Shown piece by piece: positions 957 through 63,220 of a DNA stretch of 64,000 nt (positions within the stretch are counted from its first letter, which is position 1; each line of letters opens with the position of its first letter). The translations under genes were made by a program, and so were the position numbers. Source of the DNA: Escherichia phage vB_EcoS_HdK1; sequence record MK373794.1; one strand, given 5' to 3'. The notes below the pieces were generated by a model, which made no database searches, was not told the origin of the DNA, and saw nothing but the letters and a program-made list of their open reading frames with translations.

Positions 957-1220
957 TTAGCAGTTTTTTAACAGGTTGATGAAGCCCACCAGCGTGGACG
1001 CTGTTGCAACCAGGCGGCCCATAGTATGCAGTTCCGCGTAAACTTTACCGTCGTCAAACACAGTTAAATAAACGTTAAGACCATTGCAACGGACGCGATA
1101 TTTGCGCGAGTTATTACCAAAAGTTTCCAGCTCTGCGGTGATAGTCGCAAGATTAGCTATACGTTTGCCGATAATGCGGCGAGTGATAGTGGACTGGTTT
1201 AATACTGTAGACATAATCAT
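957..1220 (-). CDS. Hypothetical early protein, 87 aa (paralog family B)
   Basis: ORF track; N-terminal motif STITRRIIGKRI matches SQITKRIIGKRL of the 2529..2835 product; AGAGG ribosome-binding site upstream. Confidence 0.5.
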   Translation of the reverse strand: MIMSTVLNQSTITRRIIGKRIANLATITAELETFGNNSRKYRVRCNGLNVYLTVFDDGKVYAELHTMGRLVATASTLVGFINLLKNC

Positions 1221-1245
1221 TTCCTCTGTTAACTATGCGAAGTGC

Positions 1246-1274
1246 ATATTATTGCCCACTGTTACTATGGGCAA
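1246..1274 (-). promoter_or_regulatory. Sigma70-like promoter (minus strand: -35 TTGCCC, 17-bp spacer, -10 TAATAT) overlapped by an inverted repeat (candidate operator)
   Basis: Hexamers and spacing read from the reverse complement; inverted repeat TTGCCCA-N9-TGGGCAA at 1252..1274 covers the -35 box and spacer; lies 26 bp upstream of the 957..1220 start. Confidence 0.45.
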
Positions 1275-1282
1275 TGTATATG

Positions 1283-1447
1283 TCACTCAGCGGACACATA
1301 TTCTAACGCTTCTGATAGTGTAGCGAAGTAACCATCGCTCACCAGATTAATAGCGTACTCAAGTTGATCGCGGGTCAGGTTGCGAAACTTGTTACGGATG
1401 TGATAGCAACGACCGCGATAAATAACCTGGAAATAGTTGCGTTCCAT
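1283..1447 (-). CDS. Hypothetical small protein, 54 aa
   Basis: Internal ATG of the 1283..1603 track ORF preceded by AAGGGG; the longer track ORF would overlap the neighbouring gene. Confidence 0.4.
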   Translation of the reverse strand: MERNYFQVIYRGRCYHIRNKFRNLTRDQLEYAINLVSDGYFATLSEALEYVSAE

Positions 1448-1457
1448 AATTATCCCC

Positions 1458-1703
1458 TTATGCAACGATGAACGCGTAACCGCTTTGATCCGGGAGTTCA
1501 CCACCGGAAAGAATTTCAAACTCAACGCCCGCTTTATCGCTGAACTTTTTGATAAGCTCTTCCGCTGCGGCGCGGTGGTTGCCGTAAACACCAAGATCGT
1601 CACGCCACGTGATAGTCAAGGAGCCGTTCCAACCTGTTGCTTTTACGCGCGGGTTACGGGTGGCAGTCGGGTTCATGAATTTTGTGATGATAGCTTGAGC
1701 CAT
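1458..1703 (-). CDS. Hypothetical early protein, 81 aa (paralog family A)
   Basis: ORF track; paralogous to the 679..927 product. Confidence 0.5.
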   Translation of the reverse strand: MAQAIITKFMNPTATRNPRVKATGWNGSLTITWRDDLGVYGNHRAAAEELIKKFSDKAGVEFEILSGGELPDQSGYAFIVA

Positions 1704-1708
1704 GATAA

Positions 1709-1894
1709 TTACTCCGGTAAAATTACAGTGACGTTAATATTTGCAAGGCGAGCGCACTCGCGGAAACCTTTTACATAAGCATCCATTTCGTCATAGGATG
1801 CGAAAGTTGCGTCCGGGACTGGTCCGTTGTTAATATTCACGCAATATTCGTGTTCGTCCAGGTCAACCCAACAAGTCAGAACGATAGTTTCCAT
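1709..1894 (-). CDS. Hypothetical small protein, about 61 aa
   Basis: Internal ATG (METIVL..) preceded by GGAGGG; acidic, Cys-containing. Confidence 0.4.
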   Translation of the reverse strand: METIVLTCWVDLDEHEYCVNINNGPVPDATFASYDEMDAYVKGFRECARLANINVTVILPE

Positions 1895-1972
1895 ATTATT
1901 TGCCCTCCGTATAATACAGACCCGCAACTATTGGAGCTCCGAAAACTAAGAAAGCTAATAAATAGAACATAA

Positions 1973-2452
1973 TTAGTTACCCCCTTTATTGTTGAGCCCG
2001 TTGAATTTACGCCATGCGTAGAATTCAATCGTTGCATTATTAATATTCCAACCATTAGCTTTCGCAAGGTCACGGACGTTACCAATAGTTGGCACACCAT
2101 CAGGCAACATATTATCCAGGGCATTCCAAACGTCTGCGCATTTACCTTTAATCGGGCGACGAACCCCGTTGCGCGTTTCGCTGCGCGTTTTGCTCTTGGC
2201 TGGAGCGACCGGAGCTTGTTGTGTGGTCACTTCCACGACAGTCGCTTTATCAGCTTCCACCAGATCGCTAGCTGCCTTATTAACCGCGCTTTCGCTGTAC
2301 CAGTAGCGACCACCGTCTTCGTGCGGTTCCTGGTGAATAAAGCTATTTGCTGTCGCAGTGTCCACATCCAGAACCTTTTTTAAGGCACGGCGAGCGTTAG
2401 ACATAGTGGCGAAGAAGCGAGCGTCTTTTGCTACGCGAGTGATAGTAACCAT
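1973..2452 (-). CDS. Hypothetical early protein, about 159 aa
   Basis: ORF track; start placed at the ATG preceded by GGAGAT; no recognisable catalytic motif. Confidence 0.45.
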   Translation of the reverse strand: MVTITRVAKDARFFATMSNARRALKKVLDVDTATANSFIHQEPHEDGGRYWYSESAVNKAASDLVEADKATVVEVTTQQAPVAPAKSKTRSETRNGVRRPIKGKCADVWNALDNMLPDGVPTIGNVRDLAKANGWNINNATIEFYAWRKFNGLNNKGGN

Positions 2453-2492
2453 TGTGAATATCTCCATGTTGTTCTAGCGGATTGCTAGTGGG

Positions 2493-6195: not shown

Positions 6196-6419
6196 GTGAT
6201 TCTACAAATGCGCAATTAGCCGCTGCAAGAGTGTATATGCGCGGAGCTGCCGCTGAGATTGATGCTTTGCCACAATTTGAAAAGCATGTACAGCAACTCG
6301 AAGATAAATTTAAGACTCTTAAAGATCTAGGGGATACGAAAGATGCTATAGCCTTTCTTCTTGCTATCCAATACTTGTCTATGGGGGTTGGTGACAAAGT
6401 ATGTTCCTTAGAAGAATAA
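6192..6419 (+). CDS. Hypothetical small protein, 75 aa
   Basis: ORF track (GTG start). Confidence 0.3.
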   Translation: MSDSTNAQLAAARVYMRGAAAEIDALPQFEKHVQQLEDKFKTLKDLGDTKDAIAFLLAIQYLSMGVGDKVCSLEE

Positions 6420-6931
6420 TTGGTATTGTTGCACCTTGGATACCACTTGTCATAATTGTTATTCTAGCCAACTGGGCTTATGACAATGCCATAGAATCAG
6501 CTAGAAAGGAGGGTTTCGATGCCGGTGTGTCGTACCAAAAAGAAACTCAGAAAGCGGTTGATTTCGAGGAGGAGAAACGAAGAGCGTATGAGAAAGACAC
6601 TATCGAACGTCAGTACAGATCTCGTATTGAATCTTTGGTTGCGATCTTAATAATTATCGCGCTACTAATGACAGGTTGCACAACGAAATCGCAACCGTCC
6701 GTAAGTACCTCGGTGACGCTACCGGCCCTCAGCCCGACAGCAAGACAACCGCCCAGATCGCCCGTGTGCTCACCGAGCTGTATTCAGAAAGCGTCACAGA
6801 ATACAGACAAGTGGCAGAAGAGGCTGAAAAGTATCGTATTGCCGGCGAGCAGTGCGAACTACAGTATGATGCAATGCGAAATCCGCGTAAAGAAAAGTGA
6901 TAAACTGCAAAGTCCTTGCCGGGTTGCGTAA
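6401..6931 (+). CDS. Candidate spanin locus: N-terminal transmembrane protein (i-spanin-like) whose frame also carries an internal lipobox and Pro-rich segment (o-spanin-like)
   Basis: N-terminal TMD IIGIVAPWIPLVIIVILA, charged helical region, then LLMTGC lipobox followed by a Pro/Cys-rich tail; sits directly upstream of the endolysin-like and holin genes. Confidence 0.4.
   Translation: MFLRRIIGIVAPWIPLVIIVILANWAYDNAIESARKEGFDAGVSYQKETQKAVDFEEEKRRAYEKDTIERQYRSRIESLVAILIIIALLMTGCTTKSQPSVSTSVTLPALSPTARQPPRSPVCSPSCIQKASQNTDKWQKRLKSIVLPASSANYSMMQCEIRVKKSDKLQSPCRVA
6676..6900 (+). CDS. Embedded alternate-frame ORF with coiled-coil character (possible C-terminal part of the i-spanin)
   Basis: Charged helical sequence lying wholly inside 6401..6931 in another frame; this frame is open from 6631. 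Confidence 0.3.
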   Translation: MHNEIATVRKYLGDATGPQPDSKTTAQIARVLTELYSESVTEYRQVAEEAEKYRIAGEQCELQYDAMRNPRKEK

Positions 6932-7022
6932 CTAAACGTTCAATCTTAATTGCACATAATTGATTGTGTACATGTGATAATTCAACTATGCTCTATTCGG
7001 TTTAACTGAATGGAGCTTTTTT

Positions 7023-7457
7023 ATGACTGTGCAACCACGAGGTATCCGGAATAACAATCCGGGAAATATTCGTTGGGGTGATAATTGGAAAGGTCTTGTT
7101 CCTGAAAACAAACGGACTGACCGTTCCTTCTGTCAATTTATCGATGTAAAATACGGTATTCGCGCCATTGCGCGTATTCTACTAAACTACCGCAACCGCG
7201 AAGGAATGAAACGTGTCGGAAACAAAGGGATTGACACTGTACGGGAGATTATTTCGCGCTGGGCTCCGCCGAATGAAAATAACACTGAAGCCTATATTCA
7301 ATCTGTGGCTAAGGCTTGTGGTGTTGGTGCAGAACAGCCGATTTCAGTGACCGATGATAAAATCATGCTTGCAATCGTGAAAGCGATTATCAAACATGAG
7401 AACGGTGTGCAACCTTATTCTGATGAAGTTTTGCTCGCGGGTATTCACATGGCATAG
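7023..7457 (+). CDS. Putative endolysin (peptidoglycan hydrolase), 144 aa
   Basis: Conserved N-terminal GIRNNNPGNIRWGDNWKG motif; position between the spanin candidate and the holin; GGAG ribosome-binding site. Confidence 0.5.
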   Translation: MTVQPRGIRNNNPGNIRWGDNWKGLVPENKRTDRSFCQFIDVKYGIRAIARILLNYRNREGMKRVGNKGIDTVREIISRWAPPNENNTEAYIQSVAKACGVGAEQPISVTDDKIMLAIVKAIIKHENGVQPYSDEVLLAGIHMA

Positions 7458-7470
7458 TAAGAGGTTATAA

Positions 7471-7779
7471 GTGTCGCCGAACTGGGATTGGAATATAGTT
7501 TTTATTCTCACTGCCATTGCGATGGTAGGGGGTTCCCTTGGCTACGCTGCAAGAACCCATGATGCTAAAGAAAGGTTCAGACTTAGTGTCTTCATTCAAG
7601 AGGGTGCTTTTTCTGCATTCTTTGGTTTCTTGATAGGTGTAATTAACGTGGAACATGGTGTCTCACTGGGGCTCAGTGGGGCGTTCATAGGCGTGTTATC
7701 TTGGTCCGGTTCAAGAACCATGCTAAAGTTTCTACGGAGAAAGACAGAAGCATGTGACCGAGAAAAGGAAAGAGGTTGA
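7471..7779 (+). CDS. Putative holin, 102 aa
   Basis: Small protein with at least two hydrophobic helices and a charged C-terminus, adjacent to the endolysin-like gene. Confidence 0.55.
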   Translation: MSPNWDWNIVFILTAIAMVGGSLGYAARTHDAKERFRLSVFIQEGAFSAFFGFLIGVINVEHGVSLGLSGAFIGVLSWSGSRTMLKFLRRKTEACDREKERG

Positions 7780-8018
7780 TTATGCGTCACTTCATCAATG
7801 ATCTTCTTATATTGTGTAAGAAACCGCGATTGCTTTTCATCTATATGATGATTGGACTTGCACAAATTGGAGTCAGTGCTATCGCCATTGATCAGATGCA
7901 CAAGAAACACAGGGCAAACCTGCAACCTTCAACACCACCTGTTTATGTGGTCAATAAGGTTGAACAAATCAAACAAGACATCCGGGAGATAACGTACATT
8001 CCTAAAGTTGAAATGTAG
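7776..8018 (+). CDS. Small membrane protein, 80 aa (possible antiholin or lysis regulator)
   Basis: Single hydrophobic helix; translationally coupled to the holin. Confidence 0.4.
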   Translation: MIMRHFINDLLILCKKPRLLFIYMMIGLAQIGVSAIAIDQMHKKHRANLQPSTPPVYVVNKVEQIKQDIREITYIPKVEM

Positions 8019-27825: not shown

Positions 27826-30800
27826 ATGGCAATTCGTTTACAAGGTATTTTAGTTGATGGATTGAATAAACCAATCGTCAACGCAAACGTGTTCTTACTT
27901 GCACGAAGCAATACTATTGTAGTTCTAGGTGGAAGTAAAGCGGTATTTAAGACTGATTCGCAAGGTGCTTACGACGTCACAGTGAACACCGGCCACTATG
28001 TGGTTATCATTGGGCCAGAAGGTAAGGAACCGTATAAAGCGGGTGACATTGTAATCTATGCGGATAGCCAGAACGGTTCACTTAACGCATATCTTACTAA
28101 ATGGGCTCCAGAAGAAACCACACCTGAAATACTTCAGGGAAATAAAGCAACTGGTGTCTAACTCTGAGCAATTTGCATTGCAGGCGTCTGAATCCGCTGC
28201 TAATGCTAAGAAGAGTGAGCTTAACGCAGAGACAAGTAAAAACTCTGCTGCAACGGATGCAGCGTCAGCTCTGCTGTCAAAACAGGAATCTGCTGCTAGT
28301 GCGTCTTCCGCATTGCAATCCAAGAACGCTGCGGCTGGTTCTGCTACATCAGCTCAACAAGCTCTTACTGCTGTGCAAGGACTCAAGGCTGAAGTCCAGC
28401 AATTAAAAACCGACACGCAGCATATTAAAGAAGAGGGTGTCGCTGAAGTAACAGCTCTCAAGAATGCTGCAACTACTTCGGCCAACAATGCTAAAGCATC
28501 AGAAACTGCATCTGCTAATAATGCGACTTTGGCTGATACTAAAGCAAAGGAAGCGTCTGTAAGTGCAACCACCGCTAATCAAGCGAAAGTAGCTGCTGAG
28601 GCAGCAAAGGCCGCATCCGAAGCAAGTGCAGTTGAGTCCGCTACTTCTGCCGGTAAATCGCAGACCGCAGCTAATGCAGCTAAGGCAAGTGAGACGGTTG
28701 CAACACAGAAGGCAGCTTCGGCGTCTACGTCTGAAACTAATGCGGCAGCTTCCGCTCAGACTGCGACTAACAAAGCTGGTGAGTCCGCCGCTAGTGCTAC
28801 CGCAGCTAAGGCAAGCGAAACTAATGCTAAAACTTCAGAAACTAATGCTGGTACATCAGCTGGAAGATCTGAGTCTGCTGCTTTACGCTCAGAAGCTGCT
28901 GCCCAACGTGCGGAAGACATTGCTGATGCAATTGGTCTTGAAGATGCAACTTTAACTGTTAAAGGTATCGTTCGTCTTAGCAATGATACTAACAGCACTG
29001 CTGAAAACCTGGCAGCTACGCCAAAGGCTGTTAAAACAGTCATGGACGTTGCTAATACTAAAGCTCCGTCAAATAGTCCTGTTCTAACTGGCGTACCAAC
29101 GGCACCAACTCCAGCACCTGAAGTTAATAACAATCAGATTGCCACAACTCAGTTTGTACACCAAATTATAAGCGCACTGATTGGTGATGCACCAGACGCG
29201 TTAAACACTCTGAAAGAGTTAGCTGACGCTCTTGGTGATGATCCGAATTTTGCAACGACGATAACCACACTTATTAACAGTAAGTTGGCTAAAGATCAAA
29301 ATGGTGCTGACATTCCTAATAAGCAACTGTTCATTGATAACGTTGGTCTACGTGAGACTGTCAACTTAGCTCTCGGTGCATTGAAGAAGAACCAAAACGG
29401 TGCAGATATACCGGATAAAGGTGTCTTCCTTAATAACATCAATGCTGCCAGCAAGACGGATATGGCCGCCAAGAAAGGTATGAGATATACTGTGGTCAAT
29501 GCCCCAGCGGGAGTTGAAGCAGGTAAGTTTTATCCTGTTGCGATTCGTCGTTCTTCTGGATTCAGCAGTGAATTAGCATCCAGGGTGACAATAAGTACAG
29601 GTTCAAGAACGGGAAACCATAGGTTGAACAACTGCGAGTTCAATGGTTTTGTTATGACTGGTGGTTGGACTGACAGGGGACGTTATGCTTATGGAATGTT
29701 CCACGCATATACTGCAAATGAACGTGCTATTCATTCCATTCTGATGAGTAATAAAGATGATGATCTGTGCTCTGTGTTCTATGTCGAAGGTGAAGCGTTC
29801 CCTATCTCTGTATATGTAGAAGAAGGTTTATCTGTTGTTGCACCATCTGCCGACTATGTTGTCGGACAAACGACTTACAAATGGGGTGCTACAGACCCTG
29901 GAACAGAATGCGTGGCCGCTGAAACTGTACTTAATTTCTCCAATGGTAGAGGATTCTATAGTTCGCACGCACTCCTCACAAATGCGGATATTAGTGGCAA
30001 TAAAATTTACGCCAACGGTGAAATCGTAGCTCGCGGTGAGAATCAAGTTCGCATGATTGGTGGGGACTACGGTGCGTTATGGCGTAACGACGGTGCCAAG
30101 ACCTATCTCTTATTTACCGCTAAAGGCGATCAATACGGTGGTTGGAACGATTTAAGACCATTTATGATTGATAACGCTACTGGTGAGTTTACCATCGGTA
30201 CTAAATTGAACGCCGGTCAAGGTGTGAATGGTAACGCATCCAGTGCTACTAAGTTACAAACAGCGCGTAAAATTGGTGGCGCCTCATTTGATGGTACTGC
30301 TGACGTCAATCTTCCAGGCGTTAACATTCAGGGTAATCAGAACACAACTGGTAATGCGGCAACTGCCACCAAACTACAGACAGCACGTAGGATTGCCAAT
30401 GTGCCTTTTGATGGTAGTGGCGATATATCGATTCCAGCTAGAAACGTGAATGCGTTTGCGTTAGGTTTGACTCAAATAGTACAAGATCCAGAAGATGGAA
30501 ATCTATCTAATGGTGTACCTTGGAATGCTATAACCGGTGTTTACAGACAACAAGGTATAGGAGCCTCTAATATTGTTGCTCATTTTTGTGATGGTGGTGG
30601 TTCAACACCTTCTTTGCAGATAAGAGCTATGTATAGGAATGGTGGTCTTTGGTATCGTACATCACGTGATGGTTATGGTTTTGAAGAAAACTGGGATCAA
30701 ATTTACACTAAAAAGAACCCGCCTCCGGCTGGCGAAACCTTACCTGTAGGTGTTCCATTACCGTGGCCCACGGATACACCTCCGTCCGGTTATATTGTAA

Positions 30801-31492
30801 TGCAGGGTCAACCCTTCGATAAAGCTGCATACCCGAAACTTGCTGCTGCATACCCGTCGGGTGTACTTCCAGACATGCGTGGTCAAACTATCAAAGGTAA
30901 ACCAGCAAGCGGTCGTGACGTACTTTCTACAGAAGCTGATGGTGTGAAATCACATACTCACACTGCGTCTACTGCATCTGTCGATCTTGGAAGCAAGACA
31001 ACTTCTAGCTTTGATTATGGTACTAAAGGGACAAGTAGTTTCGACTACGGTACTAAGACGAGTAATAATACTGGTGCGCATACACATGGTATTAGCGGAA
31101 CAGCAAATAGTGCAGGTGGGCACCAACACCATAGTTCTGGACCATATGCGAATTCTAGTGATAGTGATCTCTTTCCTAACGGTTATACCCAGGTTTCAGT
31201 CACAAACAAACCAGTTGTACCACGGCAAGGTGGCGCAGGTATGACCCGTGTATCAGGGAAGACATCATCAGATGGAGCACATACCCACTCGTTATCCGGT
31301 AGTGCCGCAAGCGCAGGTGCTCACGCACACACTGTTGGTATTGGTGCTCACACACACTCAGTCGGTATTGGTGCTCATAGTCATACAGTCGCTTTAGGTT
31401 CACACAGCCACGGTGTTACAGTTAACGCAACTGGTAACACGGAAAACACCGTTAAGAACGTTGCATTCAACTATATTGTGAGGGCTGCTTAA
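27826..31492 (+). CDS. Side tail fibre protein, with an apparent frameshift near 28150..28160
   Basis: Track ORFs 27826..28161 and 28058..31492 are contiguous in different frames; Ala/Ser-rich N-terminal region; C-terminus with repeated His-x-His segments ([16 protein letters not shown]..). Confidence 0.75.
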
Positions 31493-32071
31493 TGTCTTTT
31501 GAAATGAGTAATGAAGACCAGACTGTAACTGTGTACGACTACTCCAATGATACGGGGCGAATATGTGGGAACCCGTGAAGCGTATGTGGTGGCCAACACA
31601 GGTCTTCCAGCATGTTGTACTGATATGGAGCCTCCAGTGGCTCCAGAAAATCATGTGGCAGTATTTAGACCGGAAAGTCAGGTATGGATTCTGCGTGAAG
31701 ACCATCGAGGGAAAGTTGTATATGATAAAGATACAGGACTTCCTTTAGTGATAACCACAATAGGATCTCTTCCGGATAATGTAACCTATATTGCTCCCGA
31801 TGGTGAACACATGAAGTGGAACGGCGATATGTGGGTAAACGATCCGGACGCACAACATGCTAAGTCGGTTGCGGATGCAGCACAACATAAAACGGATCTT
31901 CTTAATTTAGCAGATTATAAAATCAGTATTCTGCAGGATGCTGTGACTTATAATCTAGCTACTGACGAAGAAAGTTCGATGCTTGACTCCTGGAGAAAGT
32001 TTCGCGTACTTGTCAACCGTATAAACGAAAACAATCCACAGAATATTATCTGGCCTGAGTCTCCAGAATAA
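31492..32071 (+). CDS. Tail fibre assembly protein (Tfa-like chaperone), with an apparent frameshift near 31555
   Basis: ATG overlapping the fibre stop (TAATG); N-terminal frame [22 protein letters not shown] continues in the frame of track ORF 31547..32071. Confidence 0.65.
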
Positions 32072-32110
32072 TACCTGTCGTAGTGACCTCCATTAGCTTG
32101 ATATAAATAA

Positions 32111-32154
32111 TTATCCGCTGTAAGTCCAACGACCAGCGGATAATTTTTATTTTC
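32111..32154 (+). terminator. Rho-independent terminator after the fibre/Tfa operon
   Basis: Perfect 10-bp stem TTATCCGCTG..CAGCGGATAA followed by an 11-nt T-rich run. Confidence 0.75.
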
Positions 32155-32265
32155 AATATTTACAAATCATTTTTACGCTTTACCTTGTGATTCCCCACTT
32201 TTGCTATATGCTTGCTCTGTAACGTAAGAGTTACATCAATTTAACAATCTAAATGGGGAATCCAT

Positions 32266-32979
32266 ATGTCTGACATGACTCTTATTCCGGGCGGTTTGGG
32301 TGGCGGTTTCGGTGGTGAAGCTGGCGCAGCGGCCGTTGGCGGTGGTATCGGTGGCTTAATCGGTTCGTGGATCGGAAATGGTTGGGGTGGCAATGTCGGT
32401 TGGGGTGGTCGCGGCGGTTGGGGTGGTGGTGTCGGTGAAGTCCAGGCTTCCGTAGATACTAACGCAATTCTGCAAGCCATCAATAACGGCAACCTGCAAA
32501 ACATCCAGGGCCAGAACGGTACTAACCTGACTGTCGAACGTTCTGCGGCGTCCACCTTCAACGGTATTACTCAACAGAACACTCAGAACATGCTGGCTTC
32601 CGTTCAGGGCTTTGCTGGTCTGAACACTGAAATTCGCACTGGTACAGCGTCTGTCGTAGCTGCTGTCAATGCTGCGGATGTAAACGCGTTGAACCGTTCC
32701 TTCCAAGCTCAGTTAGCTGCTCAGGAATGTTGCTGCGAGACCAACCTGAACATCGAACGTCAAGCGAACGAAACCCGTGGCCTGATCCGCGATCAGTTTG
32801 CTCAGTCTCAGGCTGTTCTGATCTGTGATCTGAAATCTCAGTTGCAGGAAGCTCGCTTTGCGAACTCCCAGCTTCATCAGACCGCTCAGATCGATTGTAA
32901 GATCAATCAGGTTGCACAGCTCGTTAACTTCAAACTGCCAACTCCTCCGACTCCGCCGACTGGTTGTTGTGGTTGCTAA
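32266..32979 (+). CDS. Gly-rich, Gln/Asn-rich protein with C-terminal Cys cluster (..PTGCCGC); unknown function
   Basis: 237 aa; N-terminal 60 aa dominated by GG/GW repeats; ECCCE and CCGC motifs; own upstream region and terminators on both sides. Confidence 0.5.
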   Translation: MSDMTLIPGGLGGGFGGEAGAAAVGGGIGGLIGSWIGNGWGGNVGWGGRGGWGGGVGEVQASVDTNAILQAINNGNLQNIQGQNGTNLTVERSAASTFNGITQQNTQNMLASVQGFAGLNTEIRTGTASVVAAVNAADVNALNRSFQAQLAAQECCCETNLNIERQANETRGLIRDQFAQSQAVLICDLKSQLQEARFANSQLHQTAQIDCKINQVAQLVNFKLPTPPTPPTGCCGC

Positions 32980-33001
32980 GATCCTAAAGTGTGGTCAACT
33001 A

Positions 33002-33025
33002 AACGCCTCTCACGGGGCGTTTTTA
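33002..33025 (+). terminator. Terminator-like hairpin after the Gly-rich gene
   Basis: AACGCC..GGCGTT stem followed by TTTTT. Confidence 0.5.
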
Positions 33026-33041
33026 AAAAGAGGTCAGACAT

Positions 33042-33407
33042 ATGGGTCACATTAAATTAGCAACATTTGCGTTACCACATATCCGTCTTCCAATGATTGC
33101 TTTACCGCATCTGGTTTACAAGACGGGTGAGCACCATACAGAGGAGCATCACGAACATGATAAACTTCATGCTAGAGATCATGAATCTATGGCAGTTATG
33201 GAAGATGTGCATGAGCGGATGGAACAACCTCCGTCAACTTGGGCGGCGTACAGTAGCAAGTCCGGCGGTATGATGTCAATTGTCGAAATGGAGTATCGTG
33301 AACTGATGGAAAAGAAAGCTGAAGGTTCACATACTGGTGTAGAAAAAGAACTAACTGATCTTGCTGCCGCTTGTATTTGTGCGCTCAAGAAAATGAAAGC
33401 GAAGTAA
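33042..33407 (+). CDS. Hypothetical protein, His/Glu-rich; possible all-alpha NTP-pyrophosphohydrolase-like (MazG-like) fold
   Basis: Clustered acidic residues (EMEYRELMEKKAEG..EKELTDLAAA) resemble MazG-type metal-binding helices; weak. Confidence 0.3.
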   Translation: MGHIKLATFALPHIRLPMIALPHLVYKTGEHHTEEHHEHDKLHARDHESMAVMEDVHERMEQPPSTWAAYSSKSGGMMSIVEMEYRELMEKKAEGSHTGVEKELTDLAAACICALKKMKAK

Positions 33408-33423: not shown

Positions 33424-33972
33424 ATGCAGAACATAAACAATGGTATGGGCGTTACTCAATTCAACGGTATGAAACCGAAAAGCTCCATCAGCGTTGGCGG
33501 CGTTGAATGGGCGTTACGTCGGGACGCTACCGATTCAACGACTGCATTTCCGCACCAAAAGGTCAGCTGGCTAAATGCTGGTTGCGAACCTATGGCAGAT
33601 GGTCGGGTTCATTATTGTTGGATAATGGGTGTGATACCACCAACGCCAGGTACTATCGAACGTCCAGTGAATGTGATGTATGTTGGCTTCCACCAGTTTA
33701 AGATCACAATAGCTCCGAACTCCATTAGCCAATCCGATCTTGATCGTATGCACGTATATGTGAGCGATAATTCTGACTTTGCAGGTGAATTCGTAAGTAA
33801 GTTCTTAGGTCTGGAACCCGCGCAGCCTGTAGAATCCCGTGAGAGCATTAGCCCATGGCCACCAACGATAGATCAGAGCGTGTTACACGCGAATCCGCAG
33901 ACTCCAGAACCTCAGGCACAACCTCAACCGCAAACTGTGGTTAAGCCAGAGCAGAAAGGTGAAGTTAAATGA
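33424..33972 (+). CDS. Hypothetical protein, 182 aa, Pro/Gln-rich C-terminus
   Basis: ORF track. Confidence 0.4.
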   Translation: MQNINNGMGVTQFNGMKPKSSISVGGVEWALRRDATDSTTAFPHQKVSWLNAGCEPMADGRVHYCWIMGVIPPTPGTIERPVNVMYVGFHQFKITIAPNSISQSDLDRMHVYVSDNSDFAGEFVSKFLGLEPAQPVESRESISPWPPTIDQSVLHANPQTPEPQAQPQPQTVVKPEQKGEVK

Positions 33973-34238
33973 CGAAGAACGAAGGTATTGATAAAGTAGT
34001 TCAGCAACTGGCAATACGTGCCCACGTTGTAGTAGACGAAGGTCATTCCGAATTAGACATCCTAAAGTCCGCTTTCAATGACTTCAAATCCATGGGCTCT
34101 TTAACTGGTATTATGTCAGTGATGAGCTCAGGTAAATTAACTCAGCAACAAGTTGATGTTGCGCAACGTATTGCTGTAAAGGTCTTGGCTGTGCTAGGCA
34201 TCCAAGAATCAAATAAAAAACAAGAAAAAGAAGAATAA
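33969..34238 (+). CDS. Hypothetical protein, 89 aa
   Basis: ORF track; last gene of the rightward block. Confidence 0.4.
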   Translation: MTKNEGIDKVVQQLAIRAHVVVDEGHSELDILKSAFNDFKSMGSLTGIMSVMSSGKLTQQQVDVAQRIAVKVLAVLGIQESNKKQEKEE

Positions 34239-34274: not shown

Positions 34275-34307
34275 GTGGGCCAGTATAAACGTATTGGCCC
34301 ACTTTTT
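34275..34307. terminator. Terminator between the convergent rightward block and leftward replication block
   Basis: GTGGGCCA..TGGCCCAC stem followed by TTTTT, between two convergent gene ends. Confidence 0.6.
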
Positions 34308-42548: not shown

Positions 42549-43379
42549 ACAGATTACTCTGCAGTTTTCTGAGACGGAATTTCTACGTTAGCGGCCGCTT
42601 GTGCAATATTAGCAGGTACTGGAACGGATACGCGACCAGTAATGCCCATGTATTTCTTCCAGCGAGCGTATTCCGCTTTAACGTTGGCTTCGTTCAGGCC
42701 TTTGTCCAGTGCAACAGGCCAGAACGTAGCTGATCGGTGCAGTCTGCCCCAGCTCCAGGGTCACAGCGTCAAAGATATCCCATGCAGCACGGCACAGAGT
42801 ACCAACACCAGGCTTGCGAATACCGTTCTGTTCAGGCTCTTTCTTAGCTTCGCGTTCTGCTGCTTTACGAGCACGCTCTTCGTCCTGCAGACGTTTCTTC
42901 TCAGCGCGTTGTGCGTCACGTTTCGCTTTTTCAGCGGCCTTAGTGGCTTCGCGGGCAGCGGATACACGACCTTTAACATCTTTCAGAGTGGATTCAATGG
43001 AGGAAACCAGATCTTCAGATGCTGCAACGGCAGTTTTCAGCTGATCGTTGTCTTTAACTTTACGTGCTGCCGCTTTAACAGCTTTCAGACCTTCTTTAGC
43101 GGTCTTCAGCTGAGCGGTAACTACGCCTTCAACTGCTTTAACTTCGTCCAGCAATGAACCTTCGTTCAGGGTCGCGAACTGTTCTTTAACAGCGGACGTA
43201 GCACCTTCGATCACATTGTAACCGGCAGTGGCTTCGTTCATTGCGGCGTCAACTTTAGCCTGCAATTCACGTGCTGCTTTTTCTTCAGCTTCACGTTTTT
43301 TCTTTGCTTCAGCTTCTTTTGCTGCTTTCTTTGCTGCTTCTTCTGCTTCCAGTTGTTCTGGAGTTTTCTCTTTAGCCAT
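42549..43379 (-). CDS. Lys/Ala/Glu-rich protein (histone-like N-terminus), with an apparent frameshift near 42725
   Basis: Track ORF 42678..43379; an alternate frame continues plausibly (..ALDKGLNEANVKAEYARWKKYMGITGRV..) to a stop near 42549. Confidence 0.4.
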
Positions 43380-61648: not shown

Positions 61649-61912
61649 TTAGCAGTTTTTTAACAGGTTGATGAAGCCCACCAGCGTGGACGCTGTTGCA
61701 ACCAGGCGGCCCATAGTATGCAGTTCCGCGTAAACTTTACCGTCGTCAAACACAGTTAAATAAACGTTAAGACCATTGCAACGGACGCGATATTTGCGCG
61801 AGTTATTACCAAAAGTTTCCAGCTCTGCGGTGATAGTCGCAAGATTAGCTATACGTTTGCCGATAATGCGGCGAGTGATAGTGGACTGGTTTAATACTGT
61901 AGACATAATCAT
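61649..61912 (-). CDS. Duplicate of the 957..1220 gene (paralog family B)
   Basis: Identical translation in the ORF track. Confidence 0.5.
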   Translation of the reverse strand: MIMSTVLNQSTITRRIIGKRIANLATITAELETFGNNSRKYRVRCNGLNVYLTVFDDGKVYAELHTMGRLVATASTLVGFINLLKNC

Positions 61913-61974
61913 TTCCTCTGTTAACTATGCGAAGTGCATATTATTGCCCACTGTTACTATGGGCAATGTATATG

Positions 61975-62139
61975 TCACTCAGCGGACACATATTCTAACG
62001 CTTCTGATAGTGTAGCGAAGTAACCATCGCTCACCAGATTAATAGCGTACTCAAGTTGATCGCGGGTCAGGTTGCGAAACTTGTTACGGATGTGATAGCA
62101 ACGACCGCGATAAATAACCTGGAAATAGTTGCGTTCCAT
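61975..62139 (-). CDS. Duplicate of the 1283..1447 gene
   Basis: Within the terminal duplication. Confidence 0.4.
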   Translation of the reverse strand: MERNYFQVIYRGRCYHIRNKFRNLTRDQLEYAINLVSDGYFATLSEALEYVSAE

Positions 62140-62149
62140 AATTATCCCC

Positions 62150-62395
62150 TTATGCAACGATGAACGCGTAACCGCTTTGATCCGGGAGTTCACCACCGGA
62201 AAGAATTTCAAACTCAACGCCCGCTTTATCGCTGAACTTTTTGATAAGCTCTTCCGCTGCGGCGCGGTGGTTGCCGTAAACACCAAGATCGTCACGCCAC
62301 GTGATAGTCAAGGAGCCGTTCCAACCTGTTGCTTTTACGCGCGGGTTACGGGTGGCAGTCGGGTTCATGAATTTTGTGATGATAGCTTGAGCCAT
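62150..62395 (-). CDS. Duplicate of the 1458..1703 gene
   Basis: Identical translation in the ORF track. Confidence 0.5.
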   Translation of the reverse strand: MAQAIITKFMNPTATRNPRVKATGWNGSLTITWRDDLGVYGNHRAAAEELIKKFSDKAGVEFEILSGGELPDQSGYAFIVA

Positions 62396-62400
62396 GATAA

Positions 62401-62586
62401 TTACTCCGGTAAAATTACAGTGACGTTAATATTTGCAAGGCGAGCGCACTCGCGGAAACCTTTTACATAAGCATCCATTTCGTCATAGGATGCGAAAGTT
62501 GCGTCCGGGACTGGTCCGTTGTTAATATTCACGCAATATTCGTGTTCGTCCAGGTCAACCCAACAAGTCAGAACGATAGTTTCCAT
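62401..62586 (-). CDS. Duplicate of the 1709..1894 gene
   Basis: Within the terminal duplication. Confidence 0.4.
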   Translation of the reverse strand: METIVLTCWVDLDEHEYCVNINNGPVPDATFASYDEMDAYVKGFRECARLANINVTVILPE

Positions 62587-62664
62587 ATTATTTGCCCTCC
62601 GTATAATACAGACCCGCAACTATTGGAGCTCCGAAAACTAAGAAAGCTAATAAATAGAACATAA

Positions 62665-63144
62665 TTAGTTACCCCCTTTATTGTTGAGCCCGTTGAATTT
62701 ACGCCATGCGTAGAATTCAATCGTTGCATTATTAATATTCCAACCATTAGCTTTCGCAAGGTCACGGACGTTACCAATAGTTGGCACACCATCAGGCAAC
62801 ATATTATCCAGGGCATTCCAAACGTCTGCGCATTTACCTTTAATCGGGCGACGAACCCCGTTGCGCGTTTCGCTGCGCGTTTTGCTCTTGGCTGGAGCGA
62901 CCGGAGCTTGTTGTGTGGTCACTTCCACGACAGTCGCTTTATCAGCTTCCACCAGATCGCTAGCTGCCTTATTAACCGCGCTTTCGCTGTACCAGTAGCG
63001 ACCACCGTCTTCGTGCGGTTCCTGGTGAATAAAGCTATTTGCTGTCGCAGTGTCCACATCCAGAACCTTTTTTAAGGCACGGCGAGCGTTAGACATAGTG
63101 GCGAAGAAGCGAGCGTCTTTTGCTACGCGAGTGATAGTAACCAT
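62665..63144 (-). CDS. Duplicate of the 1973..2452 gene
   Basis: Identical translation in the ORF track. Confidence 0.45.
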   Translation of the reverse strand: MVTITRVAKDARFFATMSNARRALKKVLDVDTATANSFIHQEPHEDGGRYWYSESAVNKAASDLVEADKATVVEVTTQQAPVAPAKSKTRSETRNGVRRPIKGKCADVWNALDNMLPDGVPTIGNVRDLAKANGWNINNATIEFYAWRKFNGLNNKGGN

Positions 63145-63220
63145 TGTGAATATCTCCATGTTGTTCTAGCGGATTGCTAGTGGGAGCCCACTGTTACAAT
63201 GGGCAACCATTAGCACGCTA

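Follow-up and report, generated by a model that had tools for sequence, protein, structure and literature searches.

What kind of protein is made from a phage gene that stands between two terminators, directly behind the tail fibre genes, and that all matching database records label 'hypothetical protein'? The gene, here called g1, is found in Escherichia phage vB_EcoS_HdK1 (sequence record MK373794.1), of which we analysed a stretch of 64,000 nucleotides. This window is approximately the entire phage genome including its terminal redundancy, and positions given without a contig name refer to it. g1 lies on the plus strand at 32266..32979, starts with ATG and encodes 237 amino acids, whose composition matches a preliminary description of the locus. 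That description took g1 for a single-gene cassette which may encode a moron, a fibre-associated or surface protein, or a toxin or bacteriocin-like peptide. The reading that we favour, tentatively and with somewhat less than even confidence, is that g1 is an abundant, accessory, moron-like protein of the cytoplasmic membrane which would serve exclusion or envelope control, and not a virion or fibre component.

Over 32100..33030 the window shares 99.8% identity with Enterobacteria phage JenK1 and 99.5% with Escherichia phage vB_EcoS_HdSG1. Both belong to the genus Nonagvirus, subfamily Queuovirinae, and the window is a Nonagvirus genome. The identity of the same region to phage JenP1, Salmonella phage SE1 and the Seuratvirus phages (for example CAjan) is 77-81%.

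Regarding the borders of the gene, the strong terminator previously noticed upstream of it was confirmed. It is an intrinsic terminator on the plus strand at 32110..32154, closing the tail-fibre operon, with an 11-bp stem (ATTATCCGCTG/CAGCGGATAAT), a 13-nt loop and a T-run; the hairpin itself spans 32110..32144 and is followed by TTTTTATTTT. Folded in a context of 61 nt it reaches -20.4 kcal/mol (z = -6.3), and none of 200 shuffled sequences was as stable. Furthermore, it is called independently by ARNOLD in the HdSG1 annotation, and a hairpin with a T-run occurs at the same place upstream of g1 in CAjan, KarlJaspers, JenP2-like loci and one T5-like phage. The second hairpin, reported after the gene, was recovered at 33001..33025 on the plus strand, where AAACGCCTC-TCAC-GGGGCGTTT forms a 9-bp stem followed by a run of five T. 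Folded alone, this hairpin is weaker (z = -1.9). Equivalent structures, with a U-run, follow g1 in CAjan, KarlJaspers and the contig L012; in L013 the hairpin is weaker and the U-run poor, and in PY100 there is no hairpin of such kind after g1. A simple scan for consensus terminators, whose chance expectation is high, listed neither of the hairpins flanking g1. We nevertheless consider both terminators credible, because a hairpin with a T-run holds both positions in divergent relatives.

Between the upstream terminator and the start codon we predict a sigma-70-like promoter on the plus strand (32185..32212), with a -35 box TTGTGA at 32185..32190, a 16-nt spacer and a -10 box TATGCT at 32207..32212; an alternative extended -10 element, TGcTATATG, overlaps it. 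The predicted promoter matches 8 of the 12 consensus positions and the cut-off of the promoter scan was 9 of 12, so it was not listed there. A -10-like hexamer (TATGCT, CATACT, TAGAAT, TATACT, GATACT or TAAATT) is found 6-7 nt 5' of a conserved hairpin in 14 divergent relatives, and the T1-like versions of the region read TTGTCA-N16-TAGAAT. The conserved hairpin is, in the window, the stem-loop TGTAAC-gtaaga-GTTACA of the 5' untranslated region (5'-UTR), on the plus strand at 32218..32235, at or near the predicted 5' end of the mRNA. The upstream regions of g1 were gathered from 28 non-identical relatives and 14 representatives were aligned by hand from hairpin-containing segments, so the alignment is biased towards structure. 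In it five of the seven pairs changed on both sides, with compensatory stems such as GTAAC/GTTAC, GTAGC/GCTAC, GTGGC/GCCAC and GTAGTC/GACTAC; 86.7% of the cells were paired, against 18-49% when the partner columns were slid, and the covariation score was attained by 0 of 500 shuffles. The motif GTAAC-N6-GTTAC has one exact site in the window, at the 5'-UTR of g1, and, with no second exact copy elsewhere in the genome, a repeated operator was ruled out. A copy of the palindrome with one mismatch (GCAACATTTGCGTTAC) lies at 33060..33075, just within the next gene, and is consistent with chance.

The 5'-UTR stem-loop probably stabilises the g1 mRNA. A hairpin at the 5' end combined with a terminator hairpin at the 3' end is the classical layout of stable, highly expressed mRNAs, for example that of ompA. 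The promoter-like sequence, the covarying hairpin and the flanking terminators support, as far as nucleotide signals can do so, the independent transcription unit proposed in the preliminary description.

Very high expression of g1 is predicted because its codon adaptation index (CAI) is the 3rd of the 91 open reading frames (ORFs), 0.56 against a genome median of 0.29, a value which part of the major capsid gene shares; the index was computed with the Sharp-Li E. coli weights. Judged by its codons, the protein is probably very abundant. The GC content of the gene is 53.5%, against 44.1% in the genome, a difference due partly to the glycine codons. The top CAI of the genome (0.59) belongs to an ORF of 233 amino acids without an assigned function in the early/replication arm, on the minus strand at 42678..43379.

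The single-gene cassette, on the other hand, did not hold. g1 is the first of four conserved genes, and the unit ends at a strong terminator at 34275..34302 (12-bp stem and T-run, a terminator in the HdSG1 annotation too), where the module meets the convergent DNA polymerase operon. Since conserved g3 (and g4) genes follow it, the hairpin at 33001..33025 is best read as an internal terminator or attenuator between g1 and g2-g4, which would set g1 well above its partners. Each of the four genes has its own PHROG, with no function catalogued. On the plus strand, g1 is followed by g2 (33042..33407, 121 amino acids, PHROG 9157), g3 (33424..33972, 182 amino acids) and g4 (33969..34238, 89 amino acids, PHROG 7239), and none of the three sequences has a signal peptide.

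The same order, g1-g2-g3-g4, was found in the Seuratvirus phages CAjan and Bas22, in KarlJaspers of the Drexlerviridae and in Yersinia phage PY100 (ORF29-32), where the module is a plus-strand island among minus-strand genes, far from the fibre genes. In the distant viral contigs L010-L018 the core is g1 and then g3, directly or past a g2-like gene. Therefore the linkage of g1 and g3 spans Queuovirinae, Drexlerviridae, PY100 and unrelated viral contigs of 40-170 kb. g3, beta-rich and cytoplasmic, is the most constant partner; AlphaFold2 gave a confident beta-rich model, for which a fold search returned no relatives. We rejected g3 as an enzyme, as its Cys and His residues are not kept in distant members and the family has no conserved catalytic residues. 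g4 is small and helical, contains Met and has a conserved helix at its C-terminus; tblastn detects it in CAjan, KarlJaspers, PY100 and L017, and an ORF of 80-90 amino acids which aligns weakly (11-20% identity) occupies its position in L010, L012, L013 and L018, the four contigs inspected for it. g2 is optional, being missing from L012-L015. His and Glu are frequent in its N-terminal half (HHTEEHHEHDKLHARDHE), which by composition could bind metal. Its C-terminal half, with two helices, weakly matches the all-alpha nucleoside triphosphate pyrophosphatases of MazG/PRA-PH type (PDB 2p06, E = 0.017); PF01503 was hit at E = 0.016 in one member of the g2 family, and the Bas22 annotation reads 'putative pyrophosphatase'.

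The position of the module raises the question of whether g1 belongs to the virion. The gene does lie where the preliminary description placed it, after the tail fibre module: it is preceded by the lateral tail fibre gene (28058..31492) and stands directly 3' of the Caudo_TAP tail-fibre assembly gene (31547..32071; Pfam 1.4e-31). g1 also follows fibre or assembly genes directly in Queuovirinae, Drexlerviridae, Epseptimavirus and L013, the L021 copy lies between head-morphogenesis and scaffold/capsid genes, and the codon adaptation is on a par with that of the capsid gene. A fibre, whisker or decoration subunit could have a long helix such as the one predicted for g1, with cysteines that could cross-link after lysis, and an internal or ejection protein could enter the host membrane by a hydrophobic N-terminus. 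However, the distribution of the gene makes a virion-associated protein distinctly unlikely. In KarlJaspers the module is flanked by the fibre locus and ssb, whereas T1, also of the Drexlerviridae, has no homologue of g1-g4; there the terminator comes directly after the fibre gene, and the ST27 gene follows. In the T5-like Salmonella phage vaffelhjerte (Epseptimavirus; L009, 4540..5440) a g1 pseudogene stands behind an intact lateral tail fibre gene. It has an in-frame TAG, the motif CCC changed to YCC and a degraded 3' end; the upstream terminator, the promoter-like hexamer and the 5' hairpin are still recognisable. In SuperGirl (L007, 5938..6217) fragments of g1 alone remain, which suggests that T5-like phages acquired g1 along with the fibre gene and later lost g1 again. 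Furthermore, g1 stands alone as an island in PY100 and L018, sits at the prophage end beside the integrase in Firmicutes, occurs as nearly identical copies in phages with unrelated capsids and tails, and is insulated from the late operon by its terminators and its predicted promoter.

The GenBank labels 'putative lateral tail fiber chaperone' and 'putative sugar-binding protein' would speak for a fibre chaperone, and the Gly/Trp-rich N-terminus resembles in composition the translocation domains of colicins, so a tail-fibre chaperone or a released bacteriocin-like protein was also considered. Both are scarcely credible now and largely refuted. The chaperone label derives from Bas22 (Escherichia phage KurtStettler; L005, 4999..6531), in which g1, without its residues 1-18, continues in frame an S74 intramolecular-chaperone domain; the fusion probably arose by a deletion that the K-12 host used for isolation tolerated. 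g1 itself has no homology to Caudo_TAP or S74 and no obligatory co-occurrence with fibres, being a pseudogene or missing where fibres are intact, and the phage has its own Caudo_TAP chaperone. Thus the fibre-associated role of the preliminary description is contradicted by the vaffelhjerte pseudogene, the absence from T1, the PY100 island and the origin of the label in Bas22. The toxin or bacteriocin-like peptide fares no better: Pfam, NCBIfam and PDB searches returned no cytotoxic or pore domain, the C-terminus is a Pro/Cys tail of 13 residues, and no immunity or export component was found. Colicin-type import is inapplicable because there are homologues in Gram-positive phages, whose hosts are monoderm.

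Although this Nonagvirus and a phage of the Drexlerviridae are of different taxa, their g1 copies share 76% identity, and by sequence comparison the module is a horizontally mobile, dispensable accessory unit. The moron suggested in the preliminary description has gained support, through the promoter-like signals, the terminators, the GC shift and the patchy presence. Three features of morons were found at the locus, namely an own downstream terminator (33001..33025), presence or absence at the same junction (KarlJaspers against T1) and a deviating composition (GC 53.5% against 44.1%, CAI 0.56 against 0.29). The search for the gene in related phages, which the preliminary description had proposed as a check, gave this patchy picture, with T1 lacking g1 and vaffelhjerte carrying it as a pseudogene.

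What the protein itself looks like was largely anticipated. The dominance of GG and GW repeats in the first 60 residues was borne out (45% Gly, 4 Trp), as was the Gln/Asn-rich middle (Ala 14%, Gln 13% and Asn 12% in residues 61-224). The chain can be divided into an acidic N-tail (residues 1-18), a Gly-zipper segment which is putatively membrane-embedded (19-42), a G/W/R-rich linker (43-60), a predicted helical Q/N/A-rich region (65-221) and a Pro/Thr/Cys tail (225-237, codons at 32938..32976) ending in PTPPTPPTGCCGC. The helical region contains C187 and the motif ECCCE at residues 154-158, whose CCC (155-157) is encoded at 32728..32736. Both parts of the previously described Cys cluster are present; the internal CCC is a family-wide feature and the tail is not. 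The prediction of the structure, another of the proposed checks, could be carried out and yielded one helix (65-221) in an AlphaFold2 monomer, where the predicted local distance difference test (pLDDT) exceeds 80 for residues ~130-210 alone. Residues 1-64 came out disordered; a long single helix with a disordered N-terminus is unsuitable for a fold search.

g1 belongs over its full length to PHROG 9288 (2.2e-130), a family of uncatalogued function. The search for remote homology gave nothing above noise in Pfam, NCBIfam, PADLOC or the PDB by sequence profile, so no relative is known from Pfam, NCBIfam, PADLOC or PDB; profile comparison links the family to PHROG 16490, described below. A word-indexed search returned 177 close relatives, and an exhaustive profile search 126 family representatives at 50% identity. 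Weak profile matches to the large repeat proteins P0206 and P0207 were judged compositional and rejected. Across the family the N-terminus M-[SD]-D-M-x-L-x-P is conserved, QGFxGLNTxI repeats are present at least once, their number varying by member, and further conserved motifs are ATRxLI, LCDxKxK and SQAAQT. CCCxT is invariant in 76 close homologues and kept in at least 90% of a divergent alignment of 27 members, most of which also keep C187.

Such conserved cysteines would suit a metal- or thiol-binding cytoplasmic protein, a scaffold for Zn, Ni, Cu or Fe-S or a redox buffer, whose Gly-rich N-terminus would serve self-association instead of insertion into the membrane. The tails CxC, GCGC and GCCGC recur in distant branches, they resemble CxxCGC, the Ni site of HypB, and the neighbour g2 is His-rich. 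Nevertheless we rate this explanation as very improbable: the C-terminal CC(GC) tail is not conserved in the Gram-negative branch and a Cys tail is missing in many members, no metal-binding family is matched, and the true transmembrane helices of the homologues point to the membrane.

The evidence for the membrane starts with the spacing of glycines. Residues G25, G29, G33, G37 and G41 form tandem GxxxG motifs, with Gly at every fourth residue, which is the textbook spacing of a glycine zipper. G29 and G33 are invariant in an alignment of 18 close homologues, and G29 is kept in all alignments. The best segment of 19 residues in g1, AGAAAVGGGIGGLIGSWIG, has a Kyte-Doolittle mean of 1.25, where the usual threshold is 1.6; at the homologous position 20 of the 187 family members exceed 1.6, with a maximum of 2.24 (examples are GIIILILFFLIFGM and WWIIILFLFAFC). 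The N-tails of the family have a mean of 22 residues with 2.3 D/E against 0.5 K/R, and about one Arg follows the segment. By the positive-inside rule, the acidic N-tail and this Arg weakly favour an N-out, C-in topology, which fits the signal-less cytoplasmic partners. Membrane insertion, topology and oligomerisation of g1 are inferred, the insertion from those homologues that have hydrophobic helices. A PDB search gave as the sole resemblance for the zipper segment the Gly/Ala-rich core of the prion protein (E = 2.1), a weak, compositional and non-significant match.

If g1 is a membrane protein, it could also be an accessory of lysis, holin- or pinholin-like or spanin-like, spanning or disrupting the envelope late in infection. 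The N-terminal membrane segment, the long helix and the Cys residues recall the i-spanin Rz and holin T, a helix of 157 residues would measure ~23 nm, roughly the width of the periplasm, and L010 and Firmicutes prophages have g1 near holin or lysin genes. In phage 9g one lysis-related gene was found and a complete lysis module was not identified (PMC4276943). However, the window contains a complete lysis cassette at 6401..8018, ~25 kb from g1, with a spanin-like lipobox ORF (6401..6931), an endolysin (7023..7457) and a LydA-type holin (7471..7779), followed by a small membrane ORF (7776..8018). Of the two regions examined, only the spanin-like locus has a lipobox ORF, and no lipoprotein partner is adjacent to g1 or embedded in it. 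The homologues in Clostridia prophages exclude an outer-membrane role, a sigma-70 promoter would give untimed expression, and the partners have no signal peptides. With 237 amino acids, a Kyte-Doolittle mean of 1.25, no endolysin beside it and a LydA-type holin already present, g1 is not a plausible holin either. We disfavour the spanin reading in view of the separate cassette, the lacking lipoprotein partner and the Gram-positive homologues, and a lysis function as a whole is quite improbable. The spanin-like locus itself, on the plus strand, encodes a transmembrane helix, a helical part, a lipobox (LLMTGC) in the same frame and a Pro-rich tail. A second frame at 6676..6900 carries an Rz-like C-terminus, which could reflect a frameshift relative to HdSG1_00016 or an unusual arrangement of spanins.

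The family reaches well into phages of Gram-positive hosts. A genome scan found g1 homologues in Clostridia, including the complete chromosome of Anaerotruncus colihominis. The Anaerotruncus protein has an acidic tail, a hydrophobic helix, a GW-rich linker, NGFxGVD repeats, CCCQT and SQAAQN, and it ends in a Pro-rich tail with GCGC. It is a member of PHROG 16490 (8.2e-78), and against the g1 family profile hhalign gives a probability of 98.8% (E = 1.3e-16). The Firmicutes members examined have a true hydrophobic transmembrane helix in place of the Gly zipper. This branch comprises at least 8000 clusters, all labelled 'hypothetical'. In temperate Firmicutes prophages the homologue is found between a holin/amidase pair and the integrase, an interval which is a classical slot for morons or lysogenic conversion genes, and it has a TTGACA box, a hairpin 5' of its start codon and hairpins 3' of its stop. 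The neighbouring genes showed no homology to g3 or g4. In three Firmicutes (pro)phage loci (L137, 7026..10080; L129, 4953..7740; L021, 5138..8127) we observed a conserved cluster of five genes, different from g1-g4, which encode a P/Q-rich protein of ~155 amino acids (PHROG 21718), a Met/Gln-rich one of ~80, the g1-like protein and a Cys-containing protein of ~135-155; the fifth gene is DUF7841 in the prophages and a non-matching ORF of 196 amino acids in L021.

Taking both branches together, a wider reading can be proposed, which is possible and rather doubtful: g1 would define a very large unrecognised class of glycine-zipper phage proteins, uniting PHROG 9288 and 16490, in which an oligomeric membrane device is regulated by cytoplasmic partners specific to each lineage. 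The device would assemble through the zipper and a Cys-rich helical stalk, and may be a channel or a lattice linked by thiolates or metal. The class may extend over at least 8000 clusters of gut Firmicutes phages and over enterobacterial sipho- and myophages, with a dedicated transcript stabilised by a hairpin and insulated by terminators.

A membrane protein with soluble partners and a predicted promoter of its own, in a mobile and optional module whose prophage copies occupy the hot spot between lysin and integrase, is also what an abortive infection or defence-like system could look like. The g1 zipper would then be a pore effector, restrained by g3 and g4 (and g2) and released by a competing phage or a failed infection to depolarise the cell. 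Kim and Bowie reportedly described, in 2005, the Gly zipper as typical of oligomeric channels such as VacA and pinholin S21. An effector of the type VI secretion system is reported to cross membranes via a glycine zipper (PMC10240207). Nevertheless, none of g1-g4 was matched by a PADLOC profile at E up to 1, the effector would have the highest expression of all, contrary to most abortive infection effectors, the partner genes are non-homologous between the Gram-negative and the Firmicutes modules, and the g3 family lacks conserved catalytic residues. A defence-like system is therefore an unlikely explanation, if one to keep in sight.

Returning to the moron-like membrane protein, we can suggest how it would work. 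Host RNA polymerase would transcribe g1 from its own sigma-70-type promoter; the transcript would begin with the conserved stem-loop and mostly stop at the hairpin after g1, leaving g1 in large excess, while a minority of read-through transcripts would supply g2-g4. The glycine zipper would anchor g1 in the cytoplasmic membrane and oligomerise it. The short acidic N-tail would probably be outside, and the Q/N-rich helix, the CCC and the Pro/Cys tail probably cytoplasmic, within reach of g3 and g4. In this way g1 may alter the membrane of the infected or lysogenic cell, and the likeliest effect would be that superinfecting phages are excluded or out-competed, or that membrane integrity is controlled. 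Exclusion is a function that we infer.

Several observations weigh against this reading. The g1 segment sums to +4.8 kcal/mol on the Hessa scale, too Gly-rich for classical insertion, and on hydrophobicity (1.25; +4.8 kcal/mol) a classical transmembrane helix in g1 itself is ruled out; the Gly-rich segment could be soluble or disordered instead. No charge cluster fixes the topology. The pLDDT is 51-69 across residues 65-130, and Fourier analysis of the family hydrophobicity profile found no 3.5-residue or heptad periodicity, so we dropped a canonical coiled coil and speak of a helical region, not of a proven coiled coil. A phage that makes a pore-prone protein at very high levels would also run a risk. 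g1 adjoins fibre genes in four lineages and lies in the head-gene region in L021, which keeps a virion role alive. Finally, a breadth of at least 8000 Firmicutes clusters is unusual, as exclusion proteins are normally narrow in distribution.

Among known systems, the closest concept is that of the exclusion morons. T4 Imm and P22 SieA are phage proteins of the inner membrane which act in superinfection exclusion, and gp15 of HK97 is said, after Cumby et al. in 2012, to be a moron-encoded protein of the same kind. Like these, g1 is an optional gene at the end of the tail region, with a terminator, a predicted promoter and an unusual base composition; its small product has a putative N-terminal membrane segment. 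Unlike them, it belongs to a family that crosses phyla, has two or three partner genes and occurs also in strictly virulent phages; it shares no sequence or profile similarity with HK97 gp15, T4 Imm or P22 SieA, and its Gly zipper, long helical region and CCC cluster are not reported for known exclusion proteins. With lambda Rz (Berry, Young and co-workers) it shares a putative N-terminal membrane segment, a long helical region, conserved Cys and a presumed abundance as an envelope protein; it differs in lying outside the lysis cassette, with no o-spanin partner, a separate spanin-like locus in the genome, Gram-positive homologues and a topology that is likely reversed. The tandem GxxxG resembles pinholin S21-68, the N-terminus of VacA and the PrP core, a resemblance of motif only and below significance; g1 is four times larger than the pinholin, and its zipper is followed by a helical domain of 160 residues. 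In lambda rexB/rexA a membrane protein is likewise in excess over its cytoplasmic partner and has an own promoter for part of its expression, and Rex acts in exclusion between phages; there is no homology, RexB is polytopic and the likeness to g1 is in gene organisation alone.

As a moron or accessory membrane protein, g1 would fall under a concept already known, in a family catalogued without a function. The PHROG 9288 and 16490 catalogues give no function, architecture or mutual link, and the expression anatomy and the module are described here. We found no earlier description of the link between the two PHROGs, of the four genes as a module, of the covariation in the 5' hairpin or of the accessory behaviour. 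A search of the literature found no experimental data on any member of the family, the BASEL papers are silent on the gene, and the 9g paper reports no virion proteomics (PMC4276943). A paper on the fold switch of an F-pyocin was set aside as it concerns the central fibre, and papers on anthracycline, P400 and Vid5 gave no information on g1.

Some further observations regard the neighbourhood and the genome as a whole. The Caudo_TAP gene is intact in the window (174 amino acids) and annotated as two frameshifted pieces in HdSG1. The sole Rfam match is a sub-threshold IS009 (35.8 bits, against a gathering score of 117) at 31900..32034, inside the Caudo_TAP gene, and probably reflects similarity to the tfa regions of E. 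coli cryptic prophages. Repeated His-x-His motifs (GAHxH/HSHxV) occur in the lateral tail fibre protein, in its C-terminal part; they resemble the HxH repeats that bind metal in fibre tips of the T4 gp37 type. ORFs of identical length and identical CAI at both ends of the window (957..2467 and 61649..63159) agree with the terminal repeat annotated in HdSG1.

Regarding its meaning, g1 is predicted to be among the highest-expressed genes of the phage and has its own conserved signals, yet it is 'hypothetical' in every database, and its family spans thousands of phages of Gram-negative and Gram-positive hosts, including abundant gut prophages. The GenBank labels 'lateral tail fiber chaperone' and 'sugar-binding protein' are open to correction, and the promoter, 5' hairpin and terminator make up a compact natural cassette for high expression. 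If g1 indeed serves as a membrane device, for exclusion or for membrane control, a mobile element common among phage accessory genomes would have its explanation, and the finding would bear on competition between phages in cocktails, since the carriers include BASEL Bas06, Bas22 and many Salmonella and E. coli candidate therapy phages. If the wider glycine-zipper class is true as well, the family would represent a new kind of phage membrane system, for exclusion between phages or for control of the membrane potential.

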